Shown here: positions 5,710 through 31,859 of the stretch, piece after piece
Layout: the number at the start of each line of letters is the position of its first letter
How positions within the stretch are numbered: position 1 is the stretch's first letter
From: Candidatus Magasanikiibacteriota bacterium
GTDB lineage: Bacteria; Patescibacteriota; Patescibacteriia; Magasanikbacterales; UBA922
Assembly (NCBI GenBank): GCA_016193335.1
Contig: JACPSK010000001.1
Coordinates: forward strand, 175,926 to 239,925
Length of the DNA: 64,000 bases
Direction of reading: 5' to 3'
The notes under the pieces: model-generated
What the model was told of the DNA's origin: nothing
The model's input: only the letters and a program-made list of their open reading frames with translations
Database searches by the model: none
Position numbers and translations under genes: made by a program

Positions 5710-5728
5710 AGACGCGTACCGACGGTAT

Positions 5729-9112: not shown

Positions 9113-10016
9113 AAATCATGTACTGACTGTGATCTTTTTGCTCATAATAAATCCTGAGAAGAATTTCTGTAACCAGGCCGAGCATAAAAAGAAGCACGGA
9201 CAAAATCACAAACATGGTGCCTATAAGAGGGAGCGGCGTTACGGTAAGATCTTTTATACCCATTATCTTAAGAGCCAGAGCCGCGGCAAAAGAAAACAAT
9301 CCCAAAACAAAAGAACCTAAGGCAGAGACACCAAAAAAACGAAGTGGTTTAGCAAAATAACCCAGCAAAAATTTCACGCTCAAAAGATCAAAAAAAACAA
9401 AAATCATCTCAGAAATTTTATGTTTGGATTCGCCGGTTTTTCGAGGAAAGTGTGAAACCGGCACTTCAACAACGTTTGCTCCTCTATGATGAGCGAAAAT
9501 CGGCATAAAAATAAAAGTCTCGCCAAGCAATTGCACCCCATCCACAAATTCACGACGATAACCTTTCAATGAACAGCTGAAATCATGAAGAGGAATATCC
9601 GTCATCCTGCGCACCAGCCAATTCGCGAGCCGCGAAAAAACTCTTCGGGAAAAGGAATCTTTCCGATCACGGCGCCTCCCCACCACGGCTCCATAGCCTT
9701 CACGCAATTTCTCGTAGAGCAAAAGAATATCCTCAGGCGCCTGCTGTAAGTCGCTGTCCATGGTTATGATATAGTCTCCTATGGCCACTTGAAATCCGGC
9801 GTCCACGGCCGCGTTTTGTCCGAAATTTTTTGAAAAAAGGACCAAAGTGGCTGGAGACAAAACGGACAAAATCTCTCGAGAACCGTCTGTAGAACCATCA
9901 TCCACAAAGACAATTTCAAAAGCTTCGCCTGTTTTTTCCAAAGTATTAACTAAACGCTCGTGTAATTCTTTTAAAGAATTTTTTTCATTGTACACAGGAA
10001 TGAGTACGGAAATCAT
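9090..10016 (-). CDS. GT2 polyprenyl-phosphate glycosyltransferase (DPM1/GtrB/ArnC-like), copy 1
   Basis: VLIPVYNE...VDDGSTDGS...MDSDLQ motifs and two C-terminal TM helices typical of lipid-carrier monosaccharide synthases. It is a paralog of 20711..21643. Confidence 0.75.
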   Translation of the reverse strand: MISVLIPVYNEKNSLKELHERLVNTLEKTGEAFEIVFVDDGSTDGSREILSVLSPATLVLFSKNFGQNAAVDAGFQVAIGDYIITMDSDLQQAPEDILLLYEKLREGYGAVVGRRRDRKDSFSRRVFSRLANWLVRRMTDIPLHDFSCSLKGYRREFVDGVQLLGETFIFMPIFAHHRGANVVEVPVSHFPRKTGESKHKISEMIFVFFDLLSVKFLLGYFAKPLRFFGVSALGSFVLGLFSFAAALALKIMGIKDLTVTPLPLIGTMFVILSVLLFMLGLVTEILLRIYYEQKDHSQYMIYEVIKNK

Positions 10017-10023
10017 ATCATTT

Positions 10024-10710
10024 TCAATTAAGTACGAGTCTAATCGGATCTATGCGATCGAGTTCGTCCGGAGAGAGAAAGTTAGGACGCTCTCTGCCGT
10101 ATACAGCGTGTACCATATGTGTTTTCATAAATTGATTCATGAGATCCGTGAAATAGTATTGTCCGTTTTCGTGACGCACAAGATCATAACGGAAAATATC
10201 CTCATTCAGAACCACGATGCCGGCAGCCGACATATTGGATGAAGGATTCGCCGGTTTTTCAATGACTTCTAGAATTATGTCGTCTTCTCCAATGGAAGCG
10301 ATTCCAGACTGTCTGGGGCTTGCCGAAGGCGCGCAGAGCCAACTGCTGGGGTATGACATACAGCCCTTGATTTCTTCCCGAGTGGGCAGTTCATCGCCGT
10401 AAATAAGCAAAAAACGTTCTTGAGGAGAAAAAAAATCTTTCGTGAGAAATAAAGCCGTTGCCGTTCCATCCAAGACAGCTTGGTCAACGTATCGAATGTT
10501 TTTTCCTTGATACTTGTGTCCTAGATGCTGCCGAATTTTTTTTTGAAGATAGCCAACCACCATAATTACTGAATCCACTTCGGGAGGAAGCGACTCAAAT
10601 ATATAATCAAGAATGGTTTTGTTCCCTACTCTCAACAATGGTTTGGGCATACTGCGCGTCAGCGGGTACATTCTGCGCCCTTCCCCTGCCGCAAGAATAA
10701 CTGTTTTCAT
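10024..10710 (-). CDS. Sugar-1-phosphate nucleotidyltransferase (HddC/mannose-1-P guanylyltransferase-like), copy 1
   Basis: MKTVILAAGEGRRMYPLTRSMPKPLL matches the NTP-transferase signature G-x-G-x-R. An internal ATG at 10710 is preferred over the track start at 10761. It is a paralog of 19995..20714. Confidence 0.7.
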   Translation of the reverse strand: MKTVILAAGEGRRMYPLTRSMPKPLLRVGNKTILDYIFESLPPEVDSVIMVVGYLQKKIRQHLGHKYQGKNIRYVDQAVLDGTATALFLTKDFFSPQERFLLIYGDELPTREEIKGCMSYPSSWLCAPSASPRQSGIASIGEDDIILEVIEKPANPSSNMSAAGIVVLNEDIFRYDLVRHENGQYYFTDLMNQFMKTHMVHAVYGRERPNFLSPDELDRIDPIRLVLN

Positions 10711-10769
10711 AGGAGGCCAGTAAAGTAGTCTTATTCTATAGGGCGGCGGCTCTCCTGTCAACGTGAGAG

Positions 10770-12560
10770 CTATTCTTTCTGCAAATGAAAAACAGCCATT
10801 TCATGCTCCTCAAAAACCAAATTCAAAGAAGACAAAGATGCAAAAACTGTTTTGTCCAAAGGCCCCTCTGACAATATATAATCAATGCGAAAACGCGAAA
10901 GCGCTTCCAAGAAATCCGTATCCATAAAACGGATATAATCATCAGCGAAACGTTCAAAACGAGTCTGGAGTTTAGGGTCCGGAAGGCCGAGCGTATGTTG
11001 CAATTGAAACTGCAGAGCATGCTCCACTTCTTGCTTGTGTGTCGCCAGATATCCATGGATGCTATCTTTTGTAATGCCTCGCAGACGCAACACACTCATG
11101 TAACGATAGACAAAATCCTCGGGATCAGCGAGCACAGATTGATTTTCTCCTGAATGATACGTATTGCAATGAGTGAACGCAGGAATGAGATTACTCCACC
11201 ACGAAATATCCTCTTCATTGATTAAAACTACGCAATCTTTTTGAGCTTGAGTATTGAAAAAAGCAAATACATCAGCGTACCATTGCCGTTCTCGAAATAT
11301 AGGCTCGTTCTTTTGATAGGCGCTCACCTGTTGGAATACACCCAATGCCAGAGAAGCGATGGCCATAAACCCGACCGCGGCCAAAGCACTGCGGGGGAAG
11401 CGCAGTCTGACTGCATGCCAAAAAAGGACAATAACTACCACGTACATGAGAGGAATAGTATAAAATACATAATGATAGTACCAAATCTCACGCCCTGTTA
11501 TGACCTGCTGATTATAGACAATCCAGGAAGCTAATATTAGGAAAAACGAAAAACTCCACCACCTAGTCCAAGAACCTAAGATACCTTTTTTGAAATATAA
11601 GATAAAACTGATTCCTGCAAAAAGAAGGGTGACGGCCAAGACAAAAAGGTTGAGATGCGGTTCACGGGTTAAATAAAGACCGATGCGCGCGGCGGCTTCT
11701 GGATACCATTGATCTTGGGCAGCTTCTAAGGCCCTCAGCCAGTATGGCAGGGAAAATAAAAGACCTAAAACAAAAATAGAAATATAGGCACGACATTCTT
11801 TATACTGATGCTTAAAAAAGGCACCAATAAAACACAAACCCAAAATCGTGAGAGCCAAAGTCCAACTAAAAACATAACTCGCCATCATAAGCGACAAAGA
11901 AAGGCCTCCTACTATTATCCACCGTTTCTCCCTCAATCCTCTATATATGTTCCAAACACACAAGAGAAAGAAAAACAACAATATCCCTCCAAACACCGGA
12001 TTGACAGGCCTGGTCCAGATAAAAAAACCTTCCGGAGAAGCAGACCCTAGTAGGTAAGCCCACACAGAGCGATAATCCACGAGATCAAAGCCCAAAGTCA
12101 CCATCAAAGCAGCCGCCGAAGCGTAGAAACCGGCTTTGCTTTTTTGAGAATCATCAGCTTCCAATATATGAAAAGTCAATAGGTAGACGGCAAAACACAG
12201 GAGGCCGGGAAGTAAAAATTTACTGAAAAGCAAAACAGAGATGAGAGAAATTCCAAACCATTTCACGGGGAAGGTATAAAGATGGGCCAGCGTGGCTGGC
12301 AAAAGAGGAAATTTATCTTTATATTCAAAAAAGGGCATAGAAGCTGTGCTTGGATGGCCATCTAAAATTTCTTGCATGATTGCTATGTAGGCTTCTTCAT
12401 TTGGCGTGGCAAACATATGCACGCCCCTATATTCAGGCCCAAGAGAAAAAGAAAACAGAATATGGGGAGCGACGGCAAGCAAGGCCACAAACAAAGACAC
12501 TACGATACCAGCCGCGTGCTGTCTGATTTTAGTATTCAGAAGCTTTAAATGCATTCGCAT
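10770..12560 (-). CDS. Polytopic membrane protein, putative GT-C-type glycosyltransferase; paralog of 3859..5709
   Basis: Many TM helices. The motif NEEAYIAIMQEIL aligns with ArnT DEARYAEISREML. An N-terminal block PEYRGVHMFATPNEE matches ESYRGVNFGNYGED of the 3859 gene. Confidence 0.5.
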   Translation of the reverse strand: MRMHLKLLNTKIRQHAAGIVVSLFVALLAVAPHILFSFSLGPEYRGVHMFATPNEEAYIAIMQEILDGHPSTASMPFFEYKDKFPLLPATLAHLYTFPVKWFGISLISVLLFSKFLLPGLLCFAVYLLTFHILEADDSQKSKAGFYASAAALMVTLGFDLVDYRSVWAYLLGSASPEGFFIWTRPVNPVFGGILLFFFLLCVWNIYRGLREKRWIIVGGLSLSLMMASYVFSWTLALTILGLCFIGAFFKHQYKECRAYISIFVLGLLFSLPYWLRALEAAQDQWYPEAAARIGLYLTREPHLNLFVLAVTLLFAGISFILYFKKGILGSWTRWWSFSFFLILASWIVYNQQVITGREIWYYHYVFYTIPLMYVVVIVLFWHAVRLRFPRSALAAVGFMAIASLALGVFQQVSAYQKNEPIFRERQWYADVFAFFNTQAQKDCVVLINEEDISWWSNLIPAFTHCNTYHSGENQSVLADPEDFVYRYMSVLRLRGITKDSIHGYLATHKQEVEHALQFQLQHTLGLPDPKLQTRFERFADDYIRFMDTDFLEALSRFRIDYILSEGPLDKTVFASLSSLNLVFEEHEMAVFHLQKE

Positions 12561-12586: not shown

Positions 12587-13258
12587 CTATTTCTTCAAAA
12601 GAATATGAAAACTATTAAAATACCAGGGGCGAAAGCATCTATATAAAAGAAAAAAAGGGAAAAACCAAAAGCCGAACTTTTTTTTGATTTTCATTTCCCT
12701 GATATCTTGAAAAACATAGAATCCCGCTTGCTGCAGGATCCGCTCTGCTTCTGAATATGTCACATAATGCATCGTGATCAGCTTTTGTCTGCCCGCGATT
12801 CCGTCTTCTTTTTGTCTATGCAAAAAATCCAGAACTGGCTCTGTCCAAGAGCGAGGCATCCAGTTGATGCCATACATGTGATAATGATAATCATAAGCGC
12901 CCCAACGATTGTGAAAACTTATGTAGGCTGAACCCCCTGTCTTCAATACTCTGTATAATTCTTTGGACATCAAAAGAGGATCTTCCACGTGTTCAGTAAC
13001 TTCTGAAGCATTTACAAAATCAAACTGCCCGTCGGGATAGGGCAGTTCTTCGGCTTTGGCCGCTCTTAAGTCAAAAGAAATTCCGTTTTGTTCCGCCAGA
13101 TTCTTGATTTCCTCGATATAGACGGGGTTGACTTCAATGCCGGAAACACGAAACCCTCTTTTTGCCATTTCCTTTAAAAAAGTTCCTCTCCCGGCGCCTA
13201 TATCCAAAACCTCGGCGCCCGGATTCAAGTAAGAGGCGCAATAATCTGCGTGTTTCAT
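12587..13258 (-). CDS. Class I SAM-dependent methyltransferase
   Basis: Motif I VLDIGAGRG, with a downstream acidic residue and a post-II motif. Confidence 0.75.
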   Translation of the reverse strand: MKHADYCASYLNPGAEVLDIGAGRGTFLKEMAKRGFRVSGIEVNPVYIEEIKNLAEQNGISFDLRAAKAEELPYPDGQFDFVNASEVTEHVEDPLLMSKELYRVLKTGGSAYISFHNRWGAYDYHYHMYGINWMPRSWTEPVLDFLHRQKEDGIAGRQKLITMHYVTYSEAERILQQAGFYVFQDIREMKIKKKFGFWFFPFFLLYRCFRPWYFNSFHILLKK

Positions 13259-13264: not shown

Positions 13265-13999
13265 TTAAGCCAACCAAGCGCTAAAGTCGGATAAAAATTG
13301 TTCCACGACCTCGTCGGTCTTGAAGTGCCGTATCATGTCCGGAAAAAATTTGGGAGGCACGGTTACGATATGAGCTCCTGCCAAAGCCGCGTCGCGAACG
13401 TCCAGGACTCCTCTGATACTCCCGACTATAATTTTTGTGTTCAATCCTGATTGGTCAAGAAGTTTTCGCACCGATTGAGTAACGAAAGACGGATCAAAAT
13501 CCTGAGAATCAAGCACTGATCTTTTTTTCAAATCCTCACGTTTCTCCGCTGACTGATCGTTAAGCCCGCCGTCACGAATCCTGCCCCAAAATAAGCTGAC
13601 ATAACGCGCGCCGGCCCGAGCCGCCATCATAGCTTGGTTACTGTGCATACAGGCAGTGCAATTCACTGATATCCCCTGTTCAGACAGAATTTTTATAGTG
13701 GCAAGCTCATCCCAGCCAACTTGAACTTTTATACTGAGCTCGGGGTATTGAAATTGCTCCACAAACTGCTTGGCCTGACGAAGAATCTCTTGAGGATCCT
13801 TGGAAAAAACTTCCACGCTCAGATGAATGCCGGGCGCGTATCTTTTTATGAGTTCAACTATCTTTCCTATGTGCCCTTCAAATGAAGACTTGGGTTCTTT
13901 GGACAAAAGAGAAGGGTTCGTGGTGACTCCGGTCGCAAACCCACGTTTCAGCGCTTCTTCAATATCGTGAAGATTCGCTGAATCAACGAATATGTTCAT
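13265..13999 (-). CDS. Transaldolase / fructose-6-phosphate aldolase family (TalC/Fsa-like)
   Basis: N-terminal IFVDSANLHDIEEA...GVTTNPSLL and a length of 244 aa match the short transaldolase/Fsa class. Confidence 0.75.
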   Translation of the reverse strand: MNIFVDSANLHDIEEALKRGFATGVTTNPSLLSKEPKSSFEGHIGKIVELIKRYAPGIHLSVEVFSKDPQEILRQAKQFVEQFQYPELSIKVQVGWDELATIKILSEQGISVNCTACMHSNQAMMAARAGARYVSLFWGRIRDGGLNDQSAEKREDLKKRSVLDSQDFDPSFVTQSVRKLLDQSGLNTKIIVGSIRGVLDVRDAALAGAHIVTVPPKFFPDMIRHFKTDEVVEQFLSDFSAWLA

Positions 14000-14195
14000 A
14001 AAATATAATGAAAATTATCTGGCTCTAGTGTATCAAAGATGCCATGTAGGATCAATAGATAACAATAAGTCCTTTACCGGAAGCTCAAAAAATATTAAAC
14101 AGCCGATTTTGCTCGCAAAGAATCAAGACAAATTTTTACTTTAGACATGTACGCCATTTTGGCCAAAAATAGATTTAAAAAAAATAAACAAAAAA

Positions 14196-14232
14196 GCGAG
14201 GCACCGCGCAGCTCGCTTTTGGATTTTGGCGT
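14196..14232. terminator. Candidate bidirectional intrinsic terminator (AGCGAG-loop-CTCGCT flanked by A and T runs)
   Basis: On the minus strand the hairpin is followed by a TTTTTTGTTTATTTTTTTT run, downstream of gmhB. Confidence 0.45.
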
Positions 14233-14247
14233 CTCTTTTATTCAGAA

Positions 14248-14273
14248 CCCCATCTCAAAAATAATTTTGAGCC
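14248..14273. promoter_or_regulatory. 26-bp palindromic intergenic motif CCCCATCTCAAAAATAATTTTGAGCC, copy 2 of 2
   Basis: 25 of 26 positions are identical to 3701..3726. Confidence 0.3.
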
Positions 14274-14279
14274 GTGGTT

Positions 14280-14828
14280 CTACAAAGATAAATAAGGAAT
14301 AGCATCCAATAACCCATTCACCCGAATGTCTGACACCAAGTCTTTATTATATGAGTAATCAATAAGAACTGTCTTAGATCCAACAGCCTCGCCCGCCTCC
14401 GTATCCGCTTTCGTGTCTCCAATAATATAGGAACGGCTGAAATCTATTCCCCATTTTTTACCGGCCTCAAGGAGCATGCCGGGCTTTGGTTTTTTGCAGG
14501 CGCAATTATCATACCGTGTATGCGGACAAACAAATATATCATCAAACGGCAAAGCGGCCACAACGGCCATAATCTTCTGGTACTCTTCTTCAGTGATCAT
14601 GCCATAAGCCCGATCAGGTTGATTGGTGACAAGAATACGCAGATAACCCAGTTCACCCATCCGTTCAAGTGCTTCTTTGACGCCATCACGAAGATGGAAT
14701 TCATGATAAAAAAAAGGAGGGCTAAAACGCACTTTTTTTCCAAGCACTTCAAAATGCTCGCCGCGATCTATGGTCTCGTTAATTACTCCATCGCGATCAA
14801 GAAATACTGCTCGTCTTTTTGTATTCAT
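14280..14828 (-). CDS. gmhB: D-glycero-D-manno-heptose 1,7-bisphosphate phosphatase (HAD family)
   Basis: FLDRDGVIN, VTNQ and CxCxKPKPGM motifs together with GDTKADTEAG are diagnostic of GmhB. The internal start MNTKRRAVFLDRDGVIN is chosen at 14828. Confidence 0.75.
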   Translation of the reverse strand: MNTKRRAVFLDRDGVINETIDRGEHFEVLGKKVRFSPPFFYHEFHLRDGVKEALERMGELGYLRILVTNQPDRAYGMITEEEYQKIMAVVAALPFDDIFVCPHTRYDNCACKKPKPGMLLEAGKKWGIDFSRSYIIGDTKADTEAGEAVGSKTVLIDYSYNKDLVSDIRVNGLLDAIPYLSL

Positions 14829-15519
14829 GGATGCGCTCTTTAAGGCCGAACACGACCAGATGATCCAACACGACATGGAAGCCTTCCACCAGCGGCGTGG
14901 AATCGGCCGGAACCACAATAGGAACATCCACCAAATCTTTCATGGGCCCGCCGTCAAAGCCCGAAAATCCTATGGTTTTGCCTCCCCTTTCTTTTATATA
15001 TTGAAGACCCTTCATGACATTCTGAGACCATTTGCCGGCCAGGTCTGTCCCACTGCCGCCATGGACGCTCAGGGCAATGCCCACGCCTTCTGGCTCATAA
15101 TAGGTTGCTAATTGATTCACATAAATGTTGTCCCAACCCCAGTCATTGATAAAAGCGCTACATTGAGGGATATTGTCCACCAGAGCCATAGCCTTGATCC
15201 CGCGGTCTCCGGGTTTTTCGGTGATAGTCTTCGTAAGATCCGCGGCCAAATGAGTGGCACTCGAAGCTGAGCCTCCATTGCCCATAATATAGACCCAGCG
15301 GCCCGCTTTCCAGGTCTCAAACAAAAGTTCGATGGCCTGATCGAGTTGCCGCGTATACTCTTGTTTTATCCTCTCTATGGTCCGATCCGCATCTTCGAGA
15401 AAAGTAGCGGCAAAAGAAGCATTTTTTTCTTCCATCATAAATGACATGTGATAATCTGAAGCGTCTGATCTCCCGCCATAATCATCGTTATAGACGGACA
15501 GAAAATCGAAATCATGCAA
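14797..15519 (-). CDS. gmhA: Sedoheptulose-7-phosphate isomerase (SIS domain)
   Basis: IMGNGGSASSATHLAADL, SVHGGSG and GFSGFDGG blocks match GmhA/LpcA. The true start may be an internal Met near 15450. Confidence 0.7.
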   Translation of the reverse strand: MHDFDFLSVYNDDYGGRSDASDYHMSFMMEEKNASFAATFLEDADRTIERIKQEYTRQLDQAIELLFETWKAGRWVYIMGNGGSASSATHLAADLTKTITEKPGDRGIKAMALVDNIPQCSAFINDWGWDNIYVNQLATYYEPEGVGIALSVHGGSGTDLAGKWSQNVMKGLQYIKERGGKTIGFSGFDGGPMKDLVDVPIVVPADSTPLVEGFHVVLDHLVVFGLKERIHEYKKTSSIS

Positions 15520-15522
15520 GCT

Positions 15523-16044
15523 CTAATCACAGTGAACGATAGCATGAACCGGCGTATTTTGCAAGCGGGTTCTCCCCGCCATGTTATCCATTTCAATGAC
15601 AAAAACCGCGCCAATAATTTCAGCGCCCGTCTTTTTGACCAATTTAATGGCCGCTGACATGGTTCCGCCCGTGGCCAAAATATCGTCTACCAATAATACC
15701 CTGTCTCCGGACTTCACATCTCTTTCAGAAATCTCTATGACTTGTGAAGCGTATTCATAGCTGTATTCCTGGGATAAAACAGGCGGAGCAATCTTGCCTT
15801 TTTTCCGAATAAGACCAAGACCAGACCCGATCCGATCGGCCAAAGCCGCGGCTATTATAAAGCCTCTCGACTCAATTCCAAGGACCATAGAGATGTCTTT
15901 TTCTCTATATGGAGAAGCGATCTCATCAATAAGTTTTTTATACAAAATCGGGTCAGCCAAAATCGGAGCTATGTCATAGGTCATTATTCCCGTTCTTGGC
16001 CAATCATTAATTTTTCTTATGTGTTCTTCGAAACTCAAATCCAT
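15523..16044 (-). CDS. apt: Adenine phosphoribosyltransferase
   Basis: PRTase motif VLLVDDILATGGT and a length of 173 aa. Confidence 0.8.
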   Translation of the reverse strand: MDLSFEEHIRKINDWPRTGIMTYDIAPILADPILYKKLIDEIASPYREKDISMVLGIESRGFIIAAALADRIGSGLGLIRKKGKIAPPVLSQEYSYEYASQVIEISERDVKSGDRVLLVDDILATGGTMSAAIKLVKKTGAEIIGAVFVIEMDNMAGRTRLQNTPVHAIVHCD

Positions 16045-16049
16045 ATGAA

Positions 16050-17174
16050 TTATTGTATTTCTTTTAGCAAGCCTTGCTCACGCATAGTCTTTTCCGTTAC
16101 CCTAAGAATTGAAGAAACATTTTCAAACTCTGTAATCCATTGCATATAATCATGCACCATATCTTCCAAACCAAAACGAGGCTCCCAACCCAAAGACCGG
16201 AGTTTATCGATATTCATGAGCGCGTGGCGGGATCCTCCCACGCGGTATCTATTGTTGATTTTGGGTTCAAAAGGGACAGCGGCCTCTTTGGCCACGCGCT
16301 CGGCCAACTCAAGGACACGAGTTCTCTCACCGCTTCCCACATTAAAAACTTCAAAATTCGCTTTTTCATCTTCGAGAACACACAGATGCGCCCGGGCCAC
16401 ATCCTGCACATGCACAAAATCTCGGATCTGTCCGGCGTCTTCATTCATTTGAATAGCTTCTTTATCCAAGACATTGGCCGCGAAGGCTCTGAGAGCCCCT
16501 GAATAATAATGCCGAAATGATTGCCTGGGACCAAGCACAATACTGTAGCGCAAAGCCACTCCGGGAATGCGGTACTGTCTTCCCAAAGTCATAAGTAATT
16601 TTTCGCTTGCCCATTTCGATATGGCGTAGGGGATGTTCGGATGAAGTTCGTCGTCTTCACGTTCTGGCAAAGGCTTTACTTCCTGTCCGCAAACGGGACA
16701 GTGCTGTTCCCAATCGCCCTTCTTCATGCGCGCTTCACTGCGCGGCGGGAGATACAGCAGACCGTGCTCCTCGCATTCAAATTTTCCTTCTCCGTAAACA
16801 GACTGGGAAGACGCCATGATAATTTTTGTGATAGACAATTTTTTATCTTCTATGCATTCAAAGAGCAAGGCAAGACTTTTTAGATTCACGTCTATATAGG
16901 TGCTGAAGTCAAGATGATAATCCATGTACGCGGCCAAATGAATCACCGAATCTATGCCTTCAAGAGCTTTGAGCCAGTCTGCCTTTTCGCGCACATCGCC
17001 CCGCATGAATTCAGCTTTTTTATGTATCCAATCCGGTAAAATCCCATTATGAGTCGGGGGGAGAAGAGAATCAAAAATACGAACCCTATACCCGGCCTCA
17101 AGCAAAAGATCGGCCACATGGGAACCTATGAACCCCGCACCACCGGTAAGAAGGACATGATGTTTATCCTTCAT
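16050..17174 (-). CDS. NAD-dependent epimerase/dehydratase with internal zinc-ribbon insertion
   Basis: [13 protein letters not shown] Rossmann motif, a YxxxK motif (YAISK) and a CPVCG-containing insert. Confidence 0.75.
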   Translation of the reverse strand: MKDKHHVLLTGGAGFIGSHVADLLLEAGYRVRIFDSLLPPTHNGILPDWIHKKAEFMRGDVREKADWLKALEGIDSVIHLAAYMDYHLDFSTYIDVNLKSLALLFECIEDKKLSITKIIMASSQSVYGEGKFECEEHGLLYLPPRSEARMKKGDWEQHCPVCGQEVKPLPEREDDELHPNIPYAISKWASEKLLMTLGRQYRIPGVALRYSIVLGPRQSFRHYYSGALRAFAANVLDKEAIQMNEDAGQIRDFVHVQDVARAHLCVLEDEKANFEVFNVGSGERTRVLELAERVAKEAAVPFEPKINNRYRVGGSRHALMNIDKLRSLGWEPRFGLEDMVHDYMQWITEFENVSSILRVTEKTMREQGLLKEIQ

Positions 17175-18165
17175 ATATTTGTTCTACGATTTTAAGAACA
17201 CTGAGCGCGTCTTTGCCGCTTGGAACCGGGTCTCTTCCCTCTTCAATGGCCAAGAGCAACTCTCTCATCTCCCGAACAAAAGAAAGCTCCGCGTCAGGGT
17301 TACACTCAAATATTTCTTCTCGCGGCAGAGCGCTATATGTTTCATCTCGAATTCCGAAGATTACTTTTTCAGTGCCGCCGTACTTTCTGCCCAGACCTTC
17401 AACATGAATATACCCGAAACTTCCATAAATTTCAAAACGATGCAAAGGTTTCCAATTCGACCAGCTGACATGAATGGAGGCGAGCTGTTTTTTTTTGCTT
17501 TTGAGGAGCAGAAAGGCATTATCTTCCACTTGCGCGGTCCAATGCAAATTTTCCACAAAACCCTTTACTTCGGCGATTTCTCCGAAAAAAGAGATAACCA
17601 TATCAACCATATGCACGCCCTGGTCAATGAGTTCTCCGCCTCCGGCCCATTCTTTGTTCATGCGCCATTCAGTGTTCATACCTTTGCGCGCTCCAAAACC
17701 ATACACTGCTCGAATAAATTGGATGTCTCCGATTTTCCCTTCGGTGAATAATTTTCGCGCGAGCAAAAAACCTTCGTGGAAACGATGATTGAAGCCGGCC
17801 ATATAGCGCAGATTCCGTGCTTGAGCAAAATTCAAAAGATCAAAAAGTTCCGTACTCGAAACGGCGCAAGGCTTTTCTGACATAACGTGTTTCCCGGCCG
17901 ATAGAGCGGCTCTGGAAATGGAGGCCAGATACTTGTGGGGCGTAGCCGCTATGACTATATCTATGTCTGTGCGTTTCAAAAGCTCTTCATAATCCGTATA
18001 TGCTTGGCAAGCAGGACCATAGACTCCGGCGAGTTCACGCGCCTTATCGCCATCTGTGTCCAGAACTGCCAAAAGATTCACCTCTCCCATCGAGGAGAGG
18101 GCCTTTACCCAGCGTTTTCCTATGCCTCCGGCTCCAACGAGCGCCACTGCGTATTTACCAATCAT
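17164..18165 (-). CDS. Gfo/Idh/MocA-family oxidoreductase
   Basis: VALVGAGGIGKRW Rossmann motif and the EKP motif (SEKPCA). Confidence 0.7.
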   Translation of the reverse strand: MIGKYAVALVGAGGIGKRWVKALSSMGEVNLLAVLDTDGDKARELAGVYGPACQAYTDYEELLKRTDIDIVIAATPHKYLASISRAALSAGKHVMSEKPCAVSSTELFDLLNFAQARNLRYMAGFNHRFHEGFLLARKLFTEGKIGDIQFIRAVYGFGARKGMNTEWRMNKEWAGGGELIDQGVHMVDMVISFFGEIAEVKGFVENLHWTAQVEDNAFLLLKSKKKQLASIHVSWSNWKPLHRFEIYGSFGYIHVEGLGRKYGGTEKVIFGIRDETYSALPREEIFECNPDAELSFVREMRELLLAIEEGRDPVPSGKDALSVLKIVEQIYEG

Positions 18166-18991
18166 ATCCTCTGTCTTTAGGTTTAATTCTTCGAGCGGTA
18201 TATATATCAGAAGTCATTATGTCTTCACGATGTTTTAGTATGGTATCAGGATCGTCCCAACGGGCGGCAAACAATTTACCTGTCACTCCGGCCATTTCTT
18301 CTGACGCTAAAAATAAACAAAATTGAGCGGCCAGCTCCGGACCTATGGTTTCCATTTTACCGGAAACCTGAGCACAGGCGTCTTGGTACACTGTTTCCCC
18401 CGCGCGTTCCGGACCCGCGGCTATTATACTATGCACAAAACCGGAATTGATAAGTCCCGGATATATGGCATTAACTGATATACATTCACCCGAAAGTTCC
18501 ACGGCAACAGACTCGGCAAAGCGGATCACCGCGGCTTTTGAAGCGGCATAGGAACTTAAATGCGGCAAAGGGCCTTCGCCCCCACCGGCGAATACGATCA
18601 CTTTCCCGTTCTCGCTACGCCTGAGCAAAGGCAAAGCATATTTCACTGCGTGCATGGTCCCAAATACATTTACTCTGAAAGCATCCTGCCAGTGATCGGA
18701 ATCCGCGTTTGTCAAAGCATTGATCTCGCCATAGATGCCGGCTGTTGTAACGAGAACGTTCAGATACTTGATCCGTGATTCAAGACCTGTAAAAAGGGCG
18801 CGCATGCCGCTAGCATCCGACACGTCTCCCACACAAACCTGGCAGGCTTCTCCCAATCTTTCTTTTATCTCATGCAACTTTTTTTCGTCGCGTCCCAGAA
18901 TAAAAACATGATAGCCCGCGTCCACAAAATGTTTCGCGACAGAGGAGCCTATCACTCCGCTTCCTCCGGTTATAAGCGCTGTTTGAATCAT
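18155..18991 (-). CDS. Classical short-chain dehydrogenase/reductase
   Basis: TGGSGVIGSSVA glycine motif and a YAASKAA catalytic YxxxK motif. Confidence 0.75.
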   Translation of the reverse strand: MIQTALITGGSGVIGSSVAKHFVDAGYHVFILGRDEKKLHEIKERLGEACQVCVGDVSDASGMRALFTGLESRIKYLNVLVTTAGIYGEINALTNADSDHWQDAFRVNVFGTMHAVKYALPLLRRSENGKVIVFAGGGEGPLPHLSSYAASKAAVIRFAESVAVELSGECISVNAIYPGLINSGFVHSIIAAGPERAGETVYQDACAQVSGKMETIGPELAAQFCLFLASEEMAGVTGKLFAARWDDPDTILKHREDIMTSDIYTARRIKPKDRGYDW

Positions 18992-19998
18992 ATGCTGTTC
19001 ATTTCTCTCGGCCTATGAATCATTACCTGCGTGCCGCTCGCTTCAACCCTATAGGGGACCTCATGGAATTTGTATTCTGTAAATAATCGGCGAACCGCAT
19101 CTTGAGATCCTTCCTGACAATAGACAAGAAAAAACCCGCCCCCGCCGGCACCGATGATTTTCCCCCCAAGAGCTCCACAGCGTTTCCCTTTTTCATATAC
19201 TTCGTCAAAGACATCATTACTCATCCGATCGGACATTTTTCTCTTGGTCTGCCAATGTTCGTCCATCAGACGTCCAAAGGTATCCAGGTCTCCCTGTTCA
19301 AAAGCCGATAAAATTCCCTTTCCAATCCGCTTTGTTTCGTGTTTGAGAGCAATCTTATCCGGTTTCTCGGCCCGTATATCATCTTGCTGTTCTGCCAAGA
19401 CCGCGGTGCTCGAGCGACGCATTGCCGTGTTGAAGAGCAAAGTCCGGCGTTCAAAGGCCTCTTGAGTCGAACGGGAAATTTTAGCGGGTAGCAGGCTTAC
19501 CGTACCATTTGCGGCTATGTCCAGCACGCAAAAATTTCCGAAAGACGCAAGATAAAAATCTTGTTTTCCGTCCGGCAGACCCAAATCTTCCGTGGCAATT
19601 TCAAAAGCTTCTTCAGCAAGCTGCAAACGGGAAAGATTTTCCCCTTTCAGAGCATGAAGGCCGTTCAAAAGACCCACCAAATAACTCGCGGAACTGCCCA
19701 AACCGGTGCCACCGGTAACATCAGCCATGGAAGAAATTTCAATCTGTTTGACAATTCCGGTCCGTTGAAGAGCGGCACGGGCAAGGTTATGCTTTAAATC
19801 CATCAGACGCTCGACCTCCTCGCTATCGCTATATTTCAAGCGAATCATCTGGTCGACAGGAGGACGGTTCAGACCGATATACATGTACAGGTTAAGCGTA
19901 ACCGCAAAAATAAAGCCGCCATGCTGTTCATAATAAGCGGGAAGATCAGTAGAACCTCCGCCAAGGGATAATCGGAAAGGCGTTCTGGTCAATATCAT
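18988..19998 (-). CDS. hddA: GHMP sugar kinase, D-glycero-D-manno-heptose 7-phosphate kinase-like
   Basis: N-terminal TRTPFRLSLGGGSTDL, GHMP motif TGGTGLGSSASYLVG and a C-terminal GAGGGGF motif. Confidence 0.65.
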   Translation of the reverse strand: MILTRTPFRLSLGGGSTDLPAYYEQHGGFIFAVTLNLYMYIGLNRPPVDQMIRLKYSDSEEVERLMDLKHNLARAALQRTGIVKQIEISSMADVTGGTGLGSSASYLVGLLNGLHALKGENLSRLQLAEEAFEIATEDLGLPDGKQDFYLASFGNFCVLDIAANGTVSLLPAKISRSTQEAFERRTLLFNTAMRRSSTAVLAEQQDDIRAEKPDKIALKHETKRIGKGILSAFEQGDLDTFGRLMDEHWQTKRKMSDRMSNDVFDEVYEKGKRCGALGGKIIGAGGGGFFLVYCQEGSQDAVRRLFTEYKFHEVPYRVEASGTQVMIHRPREMNSI

Positions 19999-20714
19999 AG
20001 AGCGCTCGAGTGAATTACATGGTTATCTTTTCCAAAGCGTTCTTTTAATAAGTGCTCGGCTCTGATCAAATCTTCTTTGCTTGAAATCCCTCCTATCACA
20101 TCCTTGGCCACAACCGCCACCATACGCCTTTTTTTCGCGAGCTGATCAACCATACTGCTCAGATAATATTCATCGTTCGCCCCAGACTGCGGTTCATAGT
20201 CAAAAATGTCTTTATCCAAAACCATCAAGCCACCCACGATAAGACCATGGAAAAGATGCTGCGGTTTTTCGATCACGCTCAGAATCGTGCCGTCCTCCCC
20301 GGTAATAACAACTCCATGGTTCCAAGGATCGTTCACTTCACAACACAAAATGCTCAAAGGATATTTCAAACAAGCATCAAAATCAGCCCGCCTTGGCAAT
20401 TCATCTCCATACAGCAACACAAAGCGATCATCTCCAATAAAGGGTTTGGCGGCCAAAAAACTATAAGCGGTTCCGAGCGCCGATCCTTCGACATAACTAA
20501 TGGAACAGCCGTGAAACACGGAACCGCAATATTCACGGATTTGTTCACCCAGATAATGCACCACTATGACGGCTTCAGTGATTTCTTCGGGAAAAGATAA
20601 AAAAATATGATCCAAAAAAGTTTTGCCTGCCACAGACAGCAAAGGTTTAGGCGTCTTGAGCGTAAGCGGCCTCATGCGTTTTCCCTCTCCGGCCGCGAGT
20701 ATAACGGCTTTCAT
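19995..20714 (-). CDS. Sugar-1-phosphate nucleotidyltransferase (HddC-like guanylyltransferase), copy 2
   Basis: MKAVILAAGEGKRMRPLTLKTPKPLL. There is a 4-bp overlap with hddA downstream and with the GT2 gene upstream. Pathway context (gmhA, gmhB, hddA) suggests heptose-1-P is the substrate. Confidence 0.65.
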   Translation of the reverse strand: MKAVILAAGEGKRMRPLTLKTPKPLLSVAGKTFLDHIFLSFPEEITEAVIVVHYLGEQIREYCGSVFHGCSISYVEGSALGTAYSFLAAKPFIGDDRFVLLYGDELPRRADFDACLKYPLSILCCEVNDPWNHGVVITGEDGTILSVIEKPQHLFHGLIVGGLMVLDKDIFDYEPQSGANDEYYLSSMVDQLAKKRRMVAVVAKDVIGGISSKEDLIRAEHLLKERFGKDNHVIHSSAL

Positions 20715-21643
20715 ATTCCTTTTGTGATAATTTTTTCGCGGATCACATACGGTGTTTGTTTGCTTGTTTCAAAATACATGCGCAACATCATCTCGGCGAG
20801 CAGACCGAGCATAACAAACAAAATGGCAGACAAGACAAAAAAAATGCTTAGAATGGGAAGAGGCGTCTGACCAAAATTACGCAAGTCCGCAAGTTTTAAG
20901 TACAAAGCCAATACGGCGACTATAAATCCGATCACGAATGAAACAAAACCGATACTGCCGAAAAACACGAGAGGTCTGCCGGTCATCGCGAGCAAAAACT
21001 TCACCGTGGCCAAATCAAAAAGATTTTTAACCGCTTTCATGAAATAATGCTTGGACAAACCAAACTTGCGTTCGTGATGACGCACGGGCACTTCCGCAAC
21101 CCGGGCTCCGCGACCATGAAGGTAAGCGGGCAAAAACACATGCATCTCACCATAAAGACGCACCCCTTGAATAACTTCTTTTCGGTATGCTTTCATGGCG
21201 CAGGCAGAATCATGCAAAGCCAAGCCGCTCACTTTGGCCGTAAGCCAATTAGCGAACCTGGACAAAATTTTTCTGTTCATCGAATCTTGTCTGTCCTTAC
21301 GCCAACCGGAAACCACGTCATAGCCTTCTCTCATTTTCGCGACTAAGACCGGAATATCGGCAGGGTCATTTTGCAAATCTCCGTCCATGGTTATGATAAT
21401 ATCGCCCTTGGCCTCGTGAATTCCGGCGTCTAACGCCGAAGTCTGTCCAAAATCCATGCTCAAGGCGAGAATACATACCTCCGGGAGCATTTTTAGTTGC
21501 TGAACCGTGTCATCGGTAGAACCGTCATCTATAAATATAATCTCAAAAATGTCGGCCACTCGTTTCATGGAATCGAGAATTTTTTCGTGCAGCAACTTGA
21601 CATTATCACGTTCATTGTATACTGGTATCACGATTGAAATCAT
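20711..21643 (-). CDS. GT2 polyprenyl-phosphate glycosyltransferase (DPM1/GtrB/ArnC-like), copy 2
   Basis: IVIPVYNE...IDDGSTDDT...MDGDLQ motifs and two C-terminal TM helices. It is a paralog of 9090..10016. Confidence 0.75.
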   Translation of the reverse strand: MISIVIPVYNERDNVKLLHEKILDSMKRVADIFEIIFIDDGSTDDTVQQLKMLPEVCILALSMDFGQTSALDAGIHEAKGDIIITMDGDLQNDPADIPVLVAKMREGYDVVSGWRKDRQDSMNRKILSRFANWLTAKVSGLALHDSACAMKAYRKEVIQGVRLYGEMHVFLPAYLHGRGARVAEVPVRHHERKFGLSKHYFMKAVKNLFDLATVKFLLAMTGRPLVFFGSIGFVSFVIGFIVAVLALYLKLADLRNFGQTPLPILSIFFVLSAILFVMLGLLAEMMLRMYFETSKQTPYVIREKIITKGI

Positions 21644-21818: not shown

Positions 21819-22556
21819 TCAATCTTGCTTTTTACGGGCAACACACAAAAGACTGGTCCCAAACGGCATGGGGATACAACTATCCAAAAACAACAAAAAA
21901 TTAAGCACGTATTTCTTCATTGCAGAACCAAAACCTTTGGTACGAGGGCCTATCGGATAAGACCGTTTTAATATCCTGCTAAAAAGCAAACAAATAGGAA
22001 TTAAGGTAAAACCGAAATAACGCAAGATACGTATCTCTAGGAGAGATTGTGAATTGATGAGACGGCGGAGTGTCAATTTTGAATAACGCCGGAAATGGCC
22101 CAATTCTCTGTCATGATACCCAAAAAGAAACTCCAGGGCGGGAACGGTAACAATAAGCATGCCCCCCGGCTTGACTAGTCTCGATAATTTCGCAAGGGCA
22201 GAATAATCGGCCTCAATATGTTCCAGAACATCGGTGGCTATAACACAGTCGTATTGATCCTTATCAGTGAAATTTTCGATAGAAGAGACTTCAAACACGC
22301 AGTCTTTTAAGCCCTTGCGCTCGGCAGCGGTCCTCGCGAGCCCTATATACTCTTCCGCCGGATCGATTCCGAACACACGGTGTCCCTTGTCTGAGAGTAA
22401 AAAAGACAGCTCTCCTGAACCGCATCCGGCATTCAAAATATGCAAAGATCTTTTGTCCTTCAGACAATCAGCTATCAAGCGATATTTCTTTTCGGCATAA
22501 GGATCCTGTTCTCTGATCAATAAATCCCGGTATTGATATTCATTATAATGATTCAT
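21819..22556 (-). CDS. Class I SAM-dependent methyltransferase
   Basis: Motif I ILNAGCGSGELS. The internal start MNHYNEYQ at 22556 avoids an overlap with the upstream gene. Confidence 0.7.
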   Translation of the reverse strand: MNHYNEYQYRDLLIREQDPYAEKKYRLIADCLKDKRSLHILNAGCGSGELSFLLSDKGHRVFGIDPAEEYIGLARTAAERKGLKDCVFEVSSIENFTDKDQYDCVIATDVLEHIEADYSALAKLSRLVKPGGMLIVTVPALEFLFGYHDRELGHFRRYSKLTLRRLINSQSLLEIRILRYFGFTLIPICLLFSRILKRSYPIGPRTKGFGSAMKKYVLNFLLFLDSCIPMPFGTSLLCVARKKQD

Positions 22557-22564
22557 AGTTGTAT

Positions 22565-24088
22565 TTACCAATAAGTATAAAACAATATTTGAAAGGCAAA
22601 ACTTTGAAATATGAGTAAGCACAAAAGCGAGGCGGATTTCGTTTCAGACTCTTGTTTGATCATAGAGGACAGTACCGGCAAAAACAATGGAAACACAAAA
22701 AGCCAGAGCCGCCCAACCTCACCCTGAAATATGCCTATGGCCAAAAGAAAAAGAACAAAAACATACCCTATATAATGATAATGTCGAGCCGTCTTATTTT
22801 TATCACGAAAACGCTGAAAAAAACCGGAAATATGCGCAATGCCCATGGCGATAGCAAAAGCAAGTATATTCATGAGGAAAAAAACCACATAGATTCCCAA
22901 GGAAGAAAAATTACTCTGCACTGTTTCGGAATTAGCGCCTCTCGCCGCGAGAAAATTTTCCAGTATCGAATAACCGGTCGAAACGTACAGAAAAGCAAAA
23001 AAACTCAGAAAAAAAACAAGACCAAGACTCAAATTCAGCGAAAAATCGTAAGCCGATCGTGTCGGATTATTTTTGTAATGCTTTTGCCATATGTGCCACA
23101 ACATATACAAAAAAACAGGAGCGACAAGCAAAAAAAGGAAATTCGAAAATAAAGCAAAAGCCGCGGCCAAACCGCCAAAGGCAGATCCAATCCGGGATGA
23201 TTTCCAGCCTTTGAGGCAGAGCCCCAAACTCAGCCATGTAATGAACAGAAAAAAAGCCTCAAGAGAACTCACGCTCATCAATACCAGGCCCGGAAAAAAA
23301 ATAAACAACTGAAGCGAAGATCTCAGGTCATTTTCATCCATGAATTCCCTCCAAAAAAGATAGATCGGAAAGACAGAAAGACCTGAAACCAAAGCCAAGA
23401 CAATGGCCACGCCCGGATATTCAAATTTGAAGAACTGCCGGAGCCCGTACAAAAACAAAATATAACCCGGCGGATGGGTGCTGCTGTGCCGCGCGTAAGA
23501 AAGATCGGGATCTGAAACGGTCGCGACATAATCATGGAGAAAACTCTTTGTATTTTCAATATGGGGAAGATAGCCAGTGTACTCCCAATAACTACGCGAT
23601 AAGGAATCCGTGACGCTCGCCCAACCCGAACGCATGCCGTTTATCCCCAAGCTAAACAGTGTAAATACAAAGGCCAAAACGGCCAAGTAAGGCCAAATTT
23701 TCCATTTTTTGAAATATTTCCGGAAGGCAAAAAATAAAAAAACGATAAAAACCGTGTACAAAACCCACCAGGGAGCCAAAATCTGCGGAGAAGGAAGGGC
23801 ATACATAATCAGTCTGTCTGCTATATACCCTTTATATGAGAGGCTGAGAACATATTTCCCCAAAACAACCAAGAACATTAAAAACATGCTGTAATAAAAT
23901 ATTTGCCGCGTTTCTTTTTCTTTCCAAAAAAAATGATGGTAAACAAGGCAAAAAAGTATGGTTGCCAATGTCAAAATAAGGCCGGCCCAGAGCACAGACT
24001 CAGCCTTTTCATAGAGCGCCAGACGGTACTCCTCCCCGAACAGCGATGAAATGAGATTCAGAAATATACTCTTAAAATAGTCCGCCAT
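22565..24088 (-). CDS. Polytopic membrane protein, possibly GT-C-type glycosyltransferase
   Basis: About 11 TM helices and an HPPGY loop motif. No soluble catalytic domain is present. Confidence 0.4.
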   Translation of the reverse strand: MADYFKSIFLNLISSLFGEEYRLALYEKAESVLWAGLILTLATILFCLVYHHFFWKEKETRQIFYYSMFLMFLVVLGKYVLSLSYKGYIADRLIMYALPSPQILAPWWVLYTVFIVFLFFAFRKYFKKWKIWPYLAVLAFVFTLFSLGINGMRSGWASVTDSLSRSYWEYTGYLPHIENTKSFLHDYVATVSDPDLSYARHSSTHPPGYILFLYGLRQFFKFEYPGVAIVLALVSGLSVFPIYLFWREFMDENDLRSSLQLFIFFPGLVLMSVSSLEAFFLFITWLSLGLCLKGWKSSRIGSAFGGLAAAFALFSNFLFLLVAPVFLYMLWHIWQKHYKNNPTRSAYDFSLNLSLGLVFFLSFFAFLYVSTGYSILENFLAARGANSETVQSNFSSLGIYVVFFLMNILAFAIAMGIAHISGFFQRFRDKNKTARHYHYIGYVFVLFLLAIGIFQGEVGRLWLFVFPLFLPVLSSMIKQESETKSASLLCLLIFQSFAFQILFYTYW

Positions 24089-29738: not shown

Positions 29739-29744
29739 TGTGGT

Positions 29745-30815: not shown

Positions 30816-30824
30816 ACAAAAAAT

Positions 30825-31766: not shown

Positions 31767-31859
31767 AAAATCAAGCTCTAAAAAGACCCTGAAACTACAA
31801 ACATAATAACATAAACCCATCTTTATGACAATGGCTGCGGAATCAAAAAACAGCGGCTT

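Follow-up and report, generated by a model that had tools for sequence, protein, structure and literature searches.

A widespread, transaldolase-linked variant of the alpha-type NDP-heptose pathway probably lies within a surface-glycosylation island of Candidatus Magasanikbacteria

What sugar is made by the compact run of sugar-phosphate genes at positions 13265-20714 of a 64,000-nucleotide stretch of a Candidatus Magasanikiibacteriota genome (GCA_016193335.1, contig JACPSK010000001.1; the whole stretch is called the window here), and what becomes of it? The initial annotation of this interval saw a complete pathway for guanosine diphosphate (GDP)-activated D-glycero-D-manno-heptose, consisting of gmhA, gmhB, hddA and an HddC-like gene beside a gene of the transaldolase/Fsa family, and assigned it to surface glycans. 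We consider it probable, though far from certain, that the genes encode a widespread variant of the alpha-type nucleoside diphosphate (NDP)-heptose pathway, inside a surface-glycosylation island of Candidatus Magasanikbacteria, which belong to the Candidate Phyla Radiation (CPR; Patescibacteria). This variant is apparently undescribed; the literature searched describes no heptose cluster linked to a transaldolase, and on heptose in Patescibacteria it yielded just a KEGG-module remark on adenosine diphosphate (ADP)-heptose in Paceibacteria.

The transaldolase, phosphatase, SIS, apt, kinase and nucleotidyltransferase genes claimed earlier are all present on the minus strand where they had been placed, as are the motifs quoted for them, FLDRDGVIN in the phosphatase and RTPFRLSLGGGSTD at the kinase N-terminus. 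Three oxidoreductase genes that had gone unmentioned, for an extended short-chain dehydrogenase/reductase (SDR) of epimerase type, a Gfo/Idh/MocA enzyme and a classical SDR, lie among them. In the direction of transcription, and with the matches that establish the family-level identities of the genes in brackets, the interval contains:

19995-20714, minus strand: NTa, NTP_transferase nucleotidyltransferase (Pfam NTP_transferase)
18988-19998, minus strand: GHMP sugar kinase, HddA type (PDB and NCBIfam matches)
18155-18991, minus strand: classical SDR oxidoreductase (Pfam adh_short)
17164-18165, minus strand: Gfo/Idh/MocA NAD-dependent sugar oxidoreductase (Pfam GFO_IDH_MocA and C-terminal domains)
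16050-17174, minus strand: extended-SDR epimerase-type enzyme with a zinc-ribbon-like insert (GalE-type best matches)
15523-16044, minus strand: apt, adenine phosphoribosyltransferase (NF002636, 192 bits against a cutoff of 125)
14797-15519, minus strand: SIS_2 isomerase, GmhA-like (Pfam SIS_2; GmhA structures)
14280-14828, minus strand: HAD-IIIA phosphatase, GmhB-like (TIGR01656, TIGR01662; GmhB structures)
14180-14215, minus strand: hairpin resembling a terminator, AAAGCGAG...CUCGCUUUUUU and then a T-run (read in the sequence)
13265-13999, minus strand: transaldolase, short TalC/B. subtilis type (Pfam TAL_FSA, 140 bits)

Do these genes form a functional unit? A profile search with the kinase returned 80 loci from species-representative genomes, onto which the window proteins were mapped; counts out of 43 refer to the loci flanked on either side by 6 kb or more, and L and P numbers denote loci and proteins, respectively. 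A cassette of kinase, SIS, HAD phosphatase and transaldolase genes occurs in CPR, Acidobacteriota, Chloroflexota, delta-proteobacteria, Ignavibacteria, Verrucomicrobiota, Bacteroidota, Actinobacteria, Thermoplasmata, Nitrosopumilaceae and Woesearchaeota. The SIS gene is present in 37 of the 43 loci, the HAD and transaldolase genes in 34 each and a nucleotidyltransferase gene in at least 26, while the SDR and Gfo/Idh/MocA genes are found in 20 each, co-occurring, and the specific epimerase in 12. Since the same set recurs around relatives of the kinase in dozens of unrelated genomes, the grouping lies far beyond chance. The apt gene adjoins the cassette in none of 80 other loci and only in the window organism's own contigs (L001-L003), for which reason it was rejected as a pathway member. 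It is an incidental housekeeping passenger, and its location between two sub-clusters, remarked upon previously, marks no meaningful functional separation.

The cassette genes are also joined to one another in single reading frames. SIS-HAD fusions (P0327, P0387, P0376), SIS-GHMP kinase fusions (P0470, P0382, P0457) and one SIS-TAL_FSA fusion forming a single polypeptide (P0347) were found, the SIS part being of the cassette type (Asp65/Glu172, described below) in each case. Because these fusions reinforce the links within the cassette, the transaldolase may be regarded as a functional pathway member and as the obvious source of sedoheptulose-7-phosphate (S7P). As a separate observation, a cassette-type SIS is fused to GAF, with or without the GHMP kinase, and once to MshEN/DUF4388, among P0470, P0382, P0383, P0410 and P0373, which hints at regulated or signalling variants.

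The best NCBIfam and PDB matches of the transaldolase are fsa/TalC and the B. subtilis transaldolase (3r8r), respectively. It is identical to the latter at D6, N28, S61, E63, K91, N113, T115, F137, R140, S194 and R196, and all eleven positions recur in the other cassette transaldolases with complete open reading frames (ORFs), which number at least 52 out of 57. Glu63 and Phe137 are of the transaldolase type, where an Fsa would show Gln and Tyr. Against the Fsa/TalC model TIGR00875 the protein scores 148 bits (cutoff 246), the match being split by a 27-aa CPR-specific insert. An Fsa-type aldolase giving a non-standard ketose was considered and rejected on the Glu/Phe signature and on the presence of all phosphate-binding residues. 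With its catalytic residues intact, the protein is, as judged from these positions, a genuine transaldolase.

Such an active site is the same as that of the housekeeping type, and the transaldolase gene is set apart from the HAD gene by 280 bp and by the terminator-like hairpin between the HAD stop and the transaldolase start, for which folding gives a stem (the z-score over a 76-nt stretch is not significant) and which we take as a putative terminator. Small CPR genomes may moreover hold this single transaldolase copy. A housekeeping enzyme of the pentose-phosphate pathway that stands beside glycan genes by accident would fit these points, but it is quite improbable in view of the synteny: in 34 of the 43 loci, spread over many phyla with large genomes, a transaldolase gene is found on the strand of the kinase and no more than 8 kb from it, and P0347 joins a cassette-type SIS to TAL_FSA in one polypeptide. 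The ability of the transaldolase to supply S7P, proposed from adjacency in one genome, is thereby retained, and its link to the pathway is stronger than first claimed.

Is the SIS protein a phosphoheptose isomerase? Its top 12 PDB matches are all phosphoheptose isomerases (E 4e-17 to 2e-9), and it reaches none of the cutoffs of the GmhA equivalogs TIGR00441 (88 bits, cutoff 209), NF010546 (68, cutoff 276) and NF001628 (63, cutoff 265). The GmhA active site expected from the initial annotation is conserved in part (E. coli numbering): His61 and His180 are kept, but Glu65 is replaced by Asp, Gln172 by Glu, Asp58 by Ser (Ser/Thr) and Arg69 by Thr. The C7-phosphate loop S-T-S-G-x-S is expanded by 10 residues to S-V-H-G-G-S-G-T-D-L-A-G-K-W-S, in which Ser119 and Ser124 are retained and the alignment of Thr120/Ser121 is ambiguous owing to the added length. 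Asp65 and Glu172 occur in every cassette-linked SIS of both subfamilies, namely type I (NGGS-T-H...D...SVHG...E...H), to which the window protein belongs, and type II (VGG[GS]-[NH]-H-N-D...SVGG...E...H). In characterised GmhAs, Asn53, Thr122, Ser126 and Gln173 are reported to be fully conserved, with Glu66 and Gln173 as the catalytic pair (PMC7705670). These residue patterns place the cassette SIS in a distinct GmhA-like clade, which is presumably the S7P ketose/aldose isomerase. Five loci (L024, L034, L036, L043 and L085) have, in addition to type II, a third SIS gene after the transaldolase gene, of the type NGGSMHVDN...SASG...NE-H; two different SIS genes per cassette suggest either a second isomerisation step or a pair of heptose routes running in parallel at the same locus.

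The kinase, whose N-terminus starts MILTRTPFRLSLGGGSTD, is matched best in the PDB by heptokinases (3k85, E 2.5e-39; WcbL 4usk, 3e-37; the Campylobacter jejuni enzyme 4n3o, 3e-33), whereas fucokinases, galactokinases and mevalonate kinases give E > 1e-11, the next family being fucokinase at 6e-11. Its grouping with HddA rather than with galactokinase or mevalonate kinase, as had been proposed, is thus borne out. R9 (in PFRLSLGGG) and D147 (in DGKQD), which are invariant in the kinase alignment (A1), correspond to Arg13 and Asp163 of WcbL, both of which are catalytic (PMC4691232). The protein remains well short of the HddA equivalog NF049969 (136 bits, cutoff 600), and it matches WcbL at 131 bits, while the second kinase of L055, which stands beside a canonical GmhA, reaches 241 bits. 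The window kinase is accordingly placed by its sequence in a clade that is sister to that of the characterised HddA enzymes, and it presumably phosphorylates C1 of heptose-7-phosphate.

The HAD-IIIA phosphatase carries AVFLDRDGVINE and the GmhB/HisB zinc motif CPH...CACKKP (zinc loop CPHTRYDNCACKKP), with its nucleophile in the DRDGV of FLDRDGVIN. It exceeds the cutoffs for the histidinol-phosphatase domain TIGR01656 (99.7 against 84 bits) and for HAD-IIIA TIGR01662 (71 against 44.6) and falls below those of the GmhB equivalogs NF006506 (100 against 178), TIGR00213 (84 against 150) and the alpha-specific NF050049 (74 against 250). Its best PDB matches are GmhB structures (4pnh, 3l8e, 2gmw), consistent with a presumed role as heptose-1,7-bisphosphate 7-phosphatase. 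For three of the four pathway steps that had been recognised by motif, therefore, GmhA, HddA and GmhB are indeed the best family and structure matches of the SIS, kinase and HAD proteins, all of them under cutoff; the fourth, HddC, did not hold for the nucleotidyltransferase.

Are the cassette enzymes divergent orthologues of the canonical ones? The canonical pattern Asp58/Glu65/Arg69/STSG/Gln172 is confined to additional SIS genes in L042, L052 and L055, where a canonical GmhA stands beside the cassette SIS, and L042 and L055 also encode a second, WcbL-like kinase. Two isomerase/kinase pairs in one locus are therefore argued to be non-redundant, and we infer that the cassette isomerase and kinase are paralogues, rather than divergent orthologues, of canonical GmhA and HddA. 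Because they are paralogous and can share one locus with their canonical counterparts, the heptose may be other than D-glycero-D-manno. Carried to its end, this thought leads to a second, paralogous pathway towards a heptose-7-phosphate of non-D-glycero-D-manno configuration (for example a C2 or C3 epimer). In CPR, a nucleotide different from GDP would serve to activate this sugar, the SDR/Gfo pair and the zinc-ribbon epimerase would remodel it, and it would be delivered as polyprenyl-phosphate heptose to a GT-C family not recognised before. We put this forward tentatively, as a possibility.

The opposite position, that this is the canonical GDP-heptose pathway, encoded by divergent orthologues and tailored as in Campylobacter capsules, appears unlikely to us, although it has several points in its favour. 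GmhA, HddA and GmhB are the nearest families and structures for isomerase, kinase and phosphatase, the substitutions at the isomerase metal site are conservative, and relatives are labelled heptose-7-phosphate kinase and S7P isomerase by the Joint Genome Institute (JGI). Set against these, the conserved or catalytic GmhA residues Gln173, Thr122 and Glu66 differ throughout the cassette clade, and cassette kinase and SIS can stand beside a canonical GmhA and a WcbL-like kinase at a single locus, which argues against redundancy. The remaining evidence on this question comes from the nucleotidyltransferase and from the oxidoreductases.

Which nucleotide is attached? The end of NTa overlaps the start of the kinase gene by 4 nt, and at least 16 other loci likewise have a nucleotidyltransferase gene immediately upstream of that for the kinase, in keeping with the presumed role of NTa as heptose-1-phosphate nucleotidyltransferase. 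Its NCBIfam matches are led by Arch_glmU (139 bits), AglF (106), a Thermoproteota sugar-1-phosphate nucleotidyltransferase/acetyltransferase (93), RmlA_long (91), MurU (84) and mannose-1-phosphate guanylyltransferase (73), with HddC (NF049965) in seventh rank at 66 bits against a cutoff of 300; in the PDB, MurU (4y7t) is best with 75 bits and HddC (5xhw) reaches 43. The labels 'GDP' and 'HddC-like' of the initial annotation do not fit these scores. A second nucleotidyltransferase of the same gene run, NTb, behaves alike, the two scoring 139-147 bits against Arch_glmU and 104-106 against AglF, with the HddC match of NTb under the 1e-12 listing threshold. A close CPR relative of NTa in L010 gives 52 bits to HddC, and all three CPR enzymes are matched best by archaeal enzymes of UDP/dTDP type, which counts against the canonical GDP-heptose pathway. 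In favour of that pathway, cassette nucleotidyltransferases outside CPR find their best matches in HddC (Thermoplasmata L073, 125 bits) or in mannose-1-phosphate guanylyltransferase (L037, L054 and L069, 134-166 bits). GDP thus seems plausible for many cassettes and is unsupported for the one described here. The position equivalent to RmlA Gln83/GlmU Gln76 was discarded as a guide to nucleotide choice, being Glu in NTa but also in the UTP-specific MurU.

A GMD-like gene 15 kb away (35387-36367; TIGR01472, 264 bits against a cutoff of 415) is a further point for GDP, and no mannose-1-phosphate guanylyltransferase was recognised in the 64-kb window. The substrate of the enzyme encoded by the GMD-like gene could be GDP-mannose or, as with DmhA/WcbK, a GDP-heptose. 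The earlier contrast between a GDP-heptose and an ADP-heptose route consequently survives in one half, namely in the use of a GHMP kinase of HddA type, starting from S7P and directed to the alpha anomer, in place of HldE/HldD; the GDP half finds no support, the nucleotidyltransferase not being HddC-like.

Could the SIS/kinase/phosphatase trio act on another sugar phosphate altogether, such as a hexose or an octulose, or make a soluble metabolite or signal? The phosphate loop and the Arg69 position of the SIS are unlike those of GmhA, and the fusion of some relatives to GAF or MshEN hints at regulatory contexts, both of which would suit this idea. The transaldolase, on the other hand, keeps the standard substrate-binding residues, with S7P as its obvious product, the nearest characterised relatives of the kinase are all heptokinases, the nucleotidyltransferase gene is coupled to that of the kinase, and the flanking genes encode glycosyltransferases. 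We therefore see little chance that the trio serves a purpose other than heptose activation.

The NDP-heptose would probably not leave this pathway unmodified. Three conserved oxidoreductases inside the operon make plain D-glycero-D-manno-heptose, the product named by the initial annotation, an unlikely one. In C. jejuni, GDP-heptose is tailored by a C4-dehydrogenase, a 4,6-dehydratase, cupin epimerases and C4-reductases (PMC10680097); none of the three operon oxidoreductases belongs to these enzyme types, which again speaks against the canonical pathway with Campylobacter-like tailoring. The epimerase (374 aa) has GalE-type 4-epimerases as its best matches and shows S-S-Q-S together with PYAISK (YxxxK), without the acid pair of dehydratases. 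It carries a zinc-ribbon-like insert, C-x2-H-G...W-E-x2-C-P-x-C, which is shared by orthologues from CPR, Acidobacteriota, Chloroflexota and Actinobacteria and absent from all solved SDR epimerases that matched. The insert spans 35-60 aa (CxxHG...WExxCPxC), with orthologues in L012, L013, L016, L025, L037, L047 and others. Among solved structures, the Gfo/Idh/MocA enzyme comes closest to sugar and inositol dehydrogenases, DgpA being one of them. From these families we infer tailoring by epimerisation through oxidation and reduction. Two other candidates were set aside: the extended SDR as a 4,6-dehydratase of a 6-deoxyheptose route, rejected on sequence (S-S-Q-S and not T-D/S-E before VYGE), and a likeness of the Gfo enzyme to SepI of septacidin biosynthesis, dropped as SepI is a GMC-family FAD oxidase and not a member of Gfo/Idh/MocA.

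How is the interval embedded? It belongs to a run of minus-strand genes at 9-25 kb of the window, with ends that overlap or nearly abut. On either side of the interval, again in the direction of transcription, lie:

22565-24088, minus strand: MEMa, membrane protein with 12 predicted transmembrane (TM) segments (hydropathy)
21819-22622, minus strand: MTa, class I S-adenosylmethionine (SAM) methyltransferase, upstream of GT2a
20711-21643, minus strand: GT2a, ArnC/GtrB/PgfS-like polyprenyl-phosphate glycosyltransferase (Pfam Glycos_transf_2)
12587-13258, minus strand: MTb, class I SAM methyltransferase (Pfam Methyltransf_11/23/25)
10770-12560, minus strand: MEMb, predicted GT-C-fold membrane glycosyltransferase, 596 aa (AlphaFold2 (AF2) model and Foldseek)
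10024-10761, minus strand: NTb, second nucleotidyltransferase, an NTa paralogue with 42% identity (probable start ATG at 10707)
9090-10016, minus strand: GT2b, second ArnC-like polyprenyl-phosphate glycosyltransferase, a GT2a paralogue with 45% identity

GT2a opens a tightly packed operon, overlapping NTa by 4 nt, and from GT2a through SIS all genes overlap or are separated by at most 6 nt; the HAD and SIS genes overlap by 32 nt. Some 150 bp upstream of GT2a, at 21822-21794, is a promoter-like site that matches at 11 of 12 positions. Downstream of the hairpin the transaldolase may, in this genome, head a second operon that also comprises MTb, MEMb, NTb and GT2b. Scans of the window for tRNAs and Rfam families were empty. 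As to gene boundaries, the gmhB-like ORF spans 14280-14927, and M34 is the probable true start (182 aa), so called in two public assemblies; an alternative SIS start at 15438 gives a 213-aa protein identical to P0121. The public protein identical to the SIS carries the organism label Candidatus Magasanikbacteria and, from the Prokaryotic Genome Annotation Pipeline (PGAP), the name 'SIS domain-containing protein', and the window kinase is encoded on the public contig CAYOIR010000002.1 (GCA_964404105.1).

Where would the activated heptose go? GT2a matches ArnC (207 bits) and PgfS (139 bits) in NCBIfam, both below cutoff, and homologues 63-70% identical to it adjoin nucleotidyltransferase and kinase genes in other CPR classes. 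The order methyltransferase, MEMb, second nucleotidyltransferase and second GT2 after the transaldolase is the same in Giovannonibacteria (L008), and MEMb follows the transaldolase in other CPR loci. MEMb has no Pfam match, and its 84 source-named homologues are all 'hypothetical' proteins of CPR or unclassified-bacterium metagenome-assembled genomes, save one labelled Candidatus Marinimicrobia. An AF2 model built from a 61-sequence alignment is of high confidence (predicted local distance difference test (pLDDT) 95, predicted template modelling score (pTM) 0.94), and in a Foldseek search of the PDB its top 21 matches are all GT-C enzymes (STT3, AftA, DPY19, AglB, ArnT, AftD; probability 1.0, TM-scores 0.43-0.53). 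Within its N-terminal loop region, the MEMb alignment (A2) shows next to no variation at E55, D67 and E79. By its model, MEMb thus has the GT-C fold and represents a previously unannotated, CPR-specific family. GT-C enzymes use polyprenyl-phosphate-linked donors. Because the CPR cassette adjoins ArnC-like GT2 genes and this GT-C family, a polyprenyl-phosphate-linked heptose donor is the predicted product of the locus. MEMa is possibly a further GT-C protein, given a weak alignment (27% identity, pairwise E 9e-6) to the PMT_2 region of the protein at 34075-35415; it has no Pfam match, its single-sequence AF2 model (pLDDT 49) is unusable, and hhalign against the MEMb alignment showed no relationship (probability 6.6). 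The rest of the window is a glycosylation island with family 1 (GT1) and family 2 (GT2) glycosyltransferases, PMT_2 proteins and a Wzy_C/TPR protein, and these surroundings of GT2, GT-C, GT1 and Wzy-like genes agree with the surface-glycan role proposed earlier.

Several other features of the island were noted. A 677-aa protein (3859-5892) is a paralogue of MEMb (E 1e-17) from the same CPR-specific, Pfam-less family and is publicly 'hypothetical'. A UbiA-family prenyltransferase (30825-31820, minus strand) weakly matches decaprenyl-phosphate phosphoribosyltransferase (74 bits, cutoff 234) and is accompanied on the minus strand by a HAD hydrolase (30240-30815), a GT2 (31860-32831) and PMT_2-type GT-C proteins (32593-34056 and 34075-35415); the layout of 30240-35415 recalls the way in which the mycobacterial decaprenyl-phosphoribose/arabinose donor route begins. 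At 29523-29909 (minus strand) a 108-aa ORF looks, as judged by eye, like a C-terminal fragment of RmlB (dTDP-glucose 4,6-dehydratase); it overlaps a plus-strand ORF that ends like the C-terminus of an IS30-type transposase, suggesting an insertion remnant beside rmlC (28947-29504). Two adjoining ORFs at 43931-45080 (minus strand) repeat NIYASSTAFLDYVSST several times and lie just upstream of two secreted-looking proteins (46007-47437 and 47446-49158), each with a single N-terminal TM segment and no Pfam match; the proteins of this region may be glycosylated surface proteins. Finally, a 1269-aa ORF without Pfam match (54164-57973) is located in the one part of the window where G+C is raised (0.49) and GC skew close to zero.

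We posit the following course for the alpha-type NDP-heptose pathway variant. The dedicated transaldolase would form S7P from fructose-6-phosphate and erythrose-4-phosphate, the SIS protein would isomerise it to an aldoheptose-7-phosphate, the GHMP kinase would phosphorylate C1 to give the alpha anomer, and the HAD-IIIA phosphatase would take off the 7-phosphate. NTa, translationally coupled to the kinase, would then yield NDP-heptose, the stereochemistry of which would be remodelled by the zinc-ribbon epimerase and the SDR/Gfo/Idh/MocA pair. The ArnC-like GT2a would move the sugar onto polyprenyl phosphate, and after flipping, GT-C enzymes (MEMb, possibly MEMa) would pass it to an acceptor outside the membrane. 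Every substrate and product in this scheme, like the order of tailoring, the polyprenyl-phosphate heptose and the acceptor, is a prediction.

Some observations weigh against this scheme. The functions of the cassette-clade enzymes are all predicted from sequence, and isomerase, phosphatase, kinase, nucleotidyltransferase and transaldolase each stay under their NCBIfam equivalog cutoffs (88/209, 100/178, 136/600, 66/300 and 148/246 bits). The changes from Glu to Asp and from Gln to Glu in the isomerase are conservative, and ordinary GmhA chemistry with a His/Asp/Glu/His metal site could result. The terminator-like hairpin parts the transaldolase from the upstream operon in the window genome, and the GMD-like gene in the island indicates that GDP-sugars are probably in use. 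What ties GT2a to NDP-heptose is the adjacency of the genes, and the paralogous GT2b/NTb pair may serve another sugar. No GtrA-type flippase was seen in the window, nor any GtrA-like small ORF in the two larger intergenic stretches examined.

What would such a pathway mean? New here is the transaldolase as a conserved cassette member across CPR, many bacterial phyla and several archaeal lineages, tied in CPR to polyprenyl-phosphate/GT-C machinery. Should the product be a new heptose or a new lipid-linked donor, prokaryotic surface glycobiology would gain a building block, the cell envelopes of CPR organisms, about which almost nothing is known, would become more accessible, and the automatic labels 'galactokinase', 'SIS domain protein' and 'hypothetical' would stand corrected. 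The second, paralogous pathway raised above as a possibility would imply a new lipid-linked heptose donor and perhaps a natural heptose that is new and widespread in uncultivated bacteria and archaea.

How does the locus compare with known systems? Heptose pathways are known mainly from lipopolysaccharide (LPS) and a few capsules, S-layer glycans and antibiotics, and to our knowledge CPR bacteria are without LPS. With the ADP-heptose (HldE/HldD) route the cassette shares S7P entering through a SIS isomerase and a GmhB-type phosphatase, but its kinase is of GHMP type; the 64-kb window contains no HldE (ribokinase-fold kinase plus adenylyltransferase) and no gene best matched by HldD, the HldD model TIGR02197 giving just secondary, below-cutoff matches to generic SDR epimerases there. 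With three-component systems of extracytoplasmic glycosylation, consisting of a GtrB/ArnC/CsbB-type GT2, a flippase and a GT-C enzyme (ArnT/GtrC/YfhO/PMT), the present locus shares the juxtaposition of a sugar-nucleotide pathway, a membrane enzyme of GT-C fold and an ArnC-like GT2 that has a TM hairpin at its C-terminus, and it differs from them in its predicted heptose donor, in its CPR-specific, Pfam-less GT-C and in the lack of a GtrA-like flippase in the window. We know of no described polyprenyl-phosphate heptose.

The GmhA homologue HygP of hygromycin B biosynthesis converts S7P to D-glycero-D-altro-heptose-7-phosphate (PMC10948575), a precedent for a GmhA-family isomerase that makes a non-D-glycero-D-manno heptose from S7P and feeds a kinase/phosphatase/nucleotidyltransferase series. 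It has its own features in the HldE-type activation of the beta anomer with ADP and in its setting in a Streptomyces antibiotic cluster. The GDP-heptose pathway has the same four enzyme folds, order of chemistry, S7P precursor, alpha-anomer logic of the GHMP kinase and use in surface glycans (PMC10680097). The cassette differs from it in having its own transaldolase, an Asp/Glu isomerase with a longer phosphate loop, a kinase of a sister clade, a CPR nucleotidyltransferase that is not HddC-like, and tailoring by an SDR and Gfo/Idh/MocA pair together with a zinc-ribbon epimerase.

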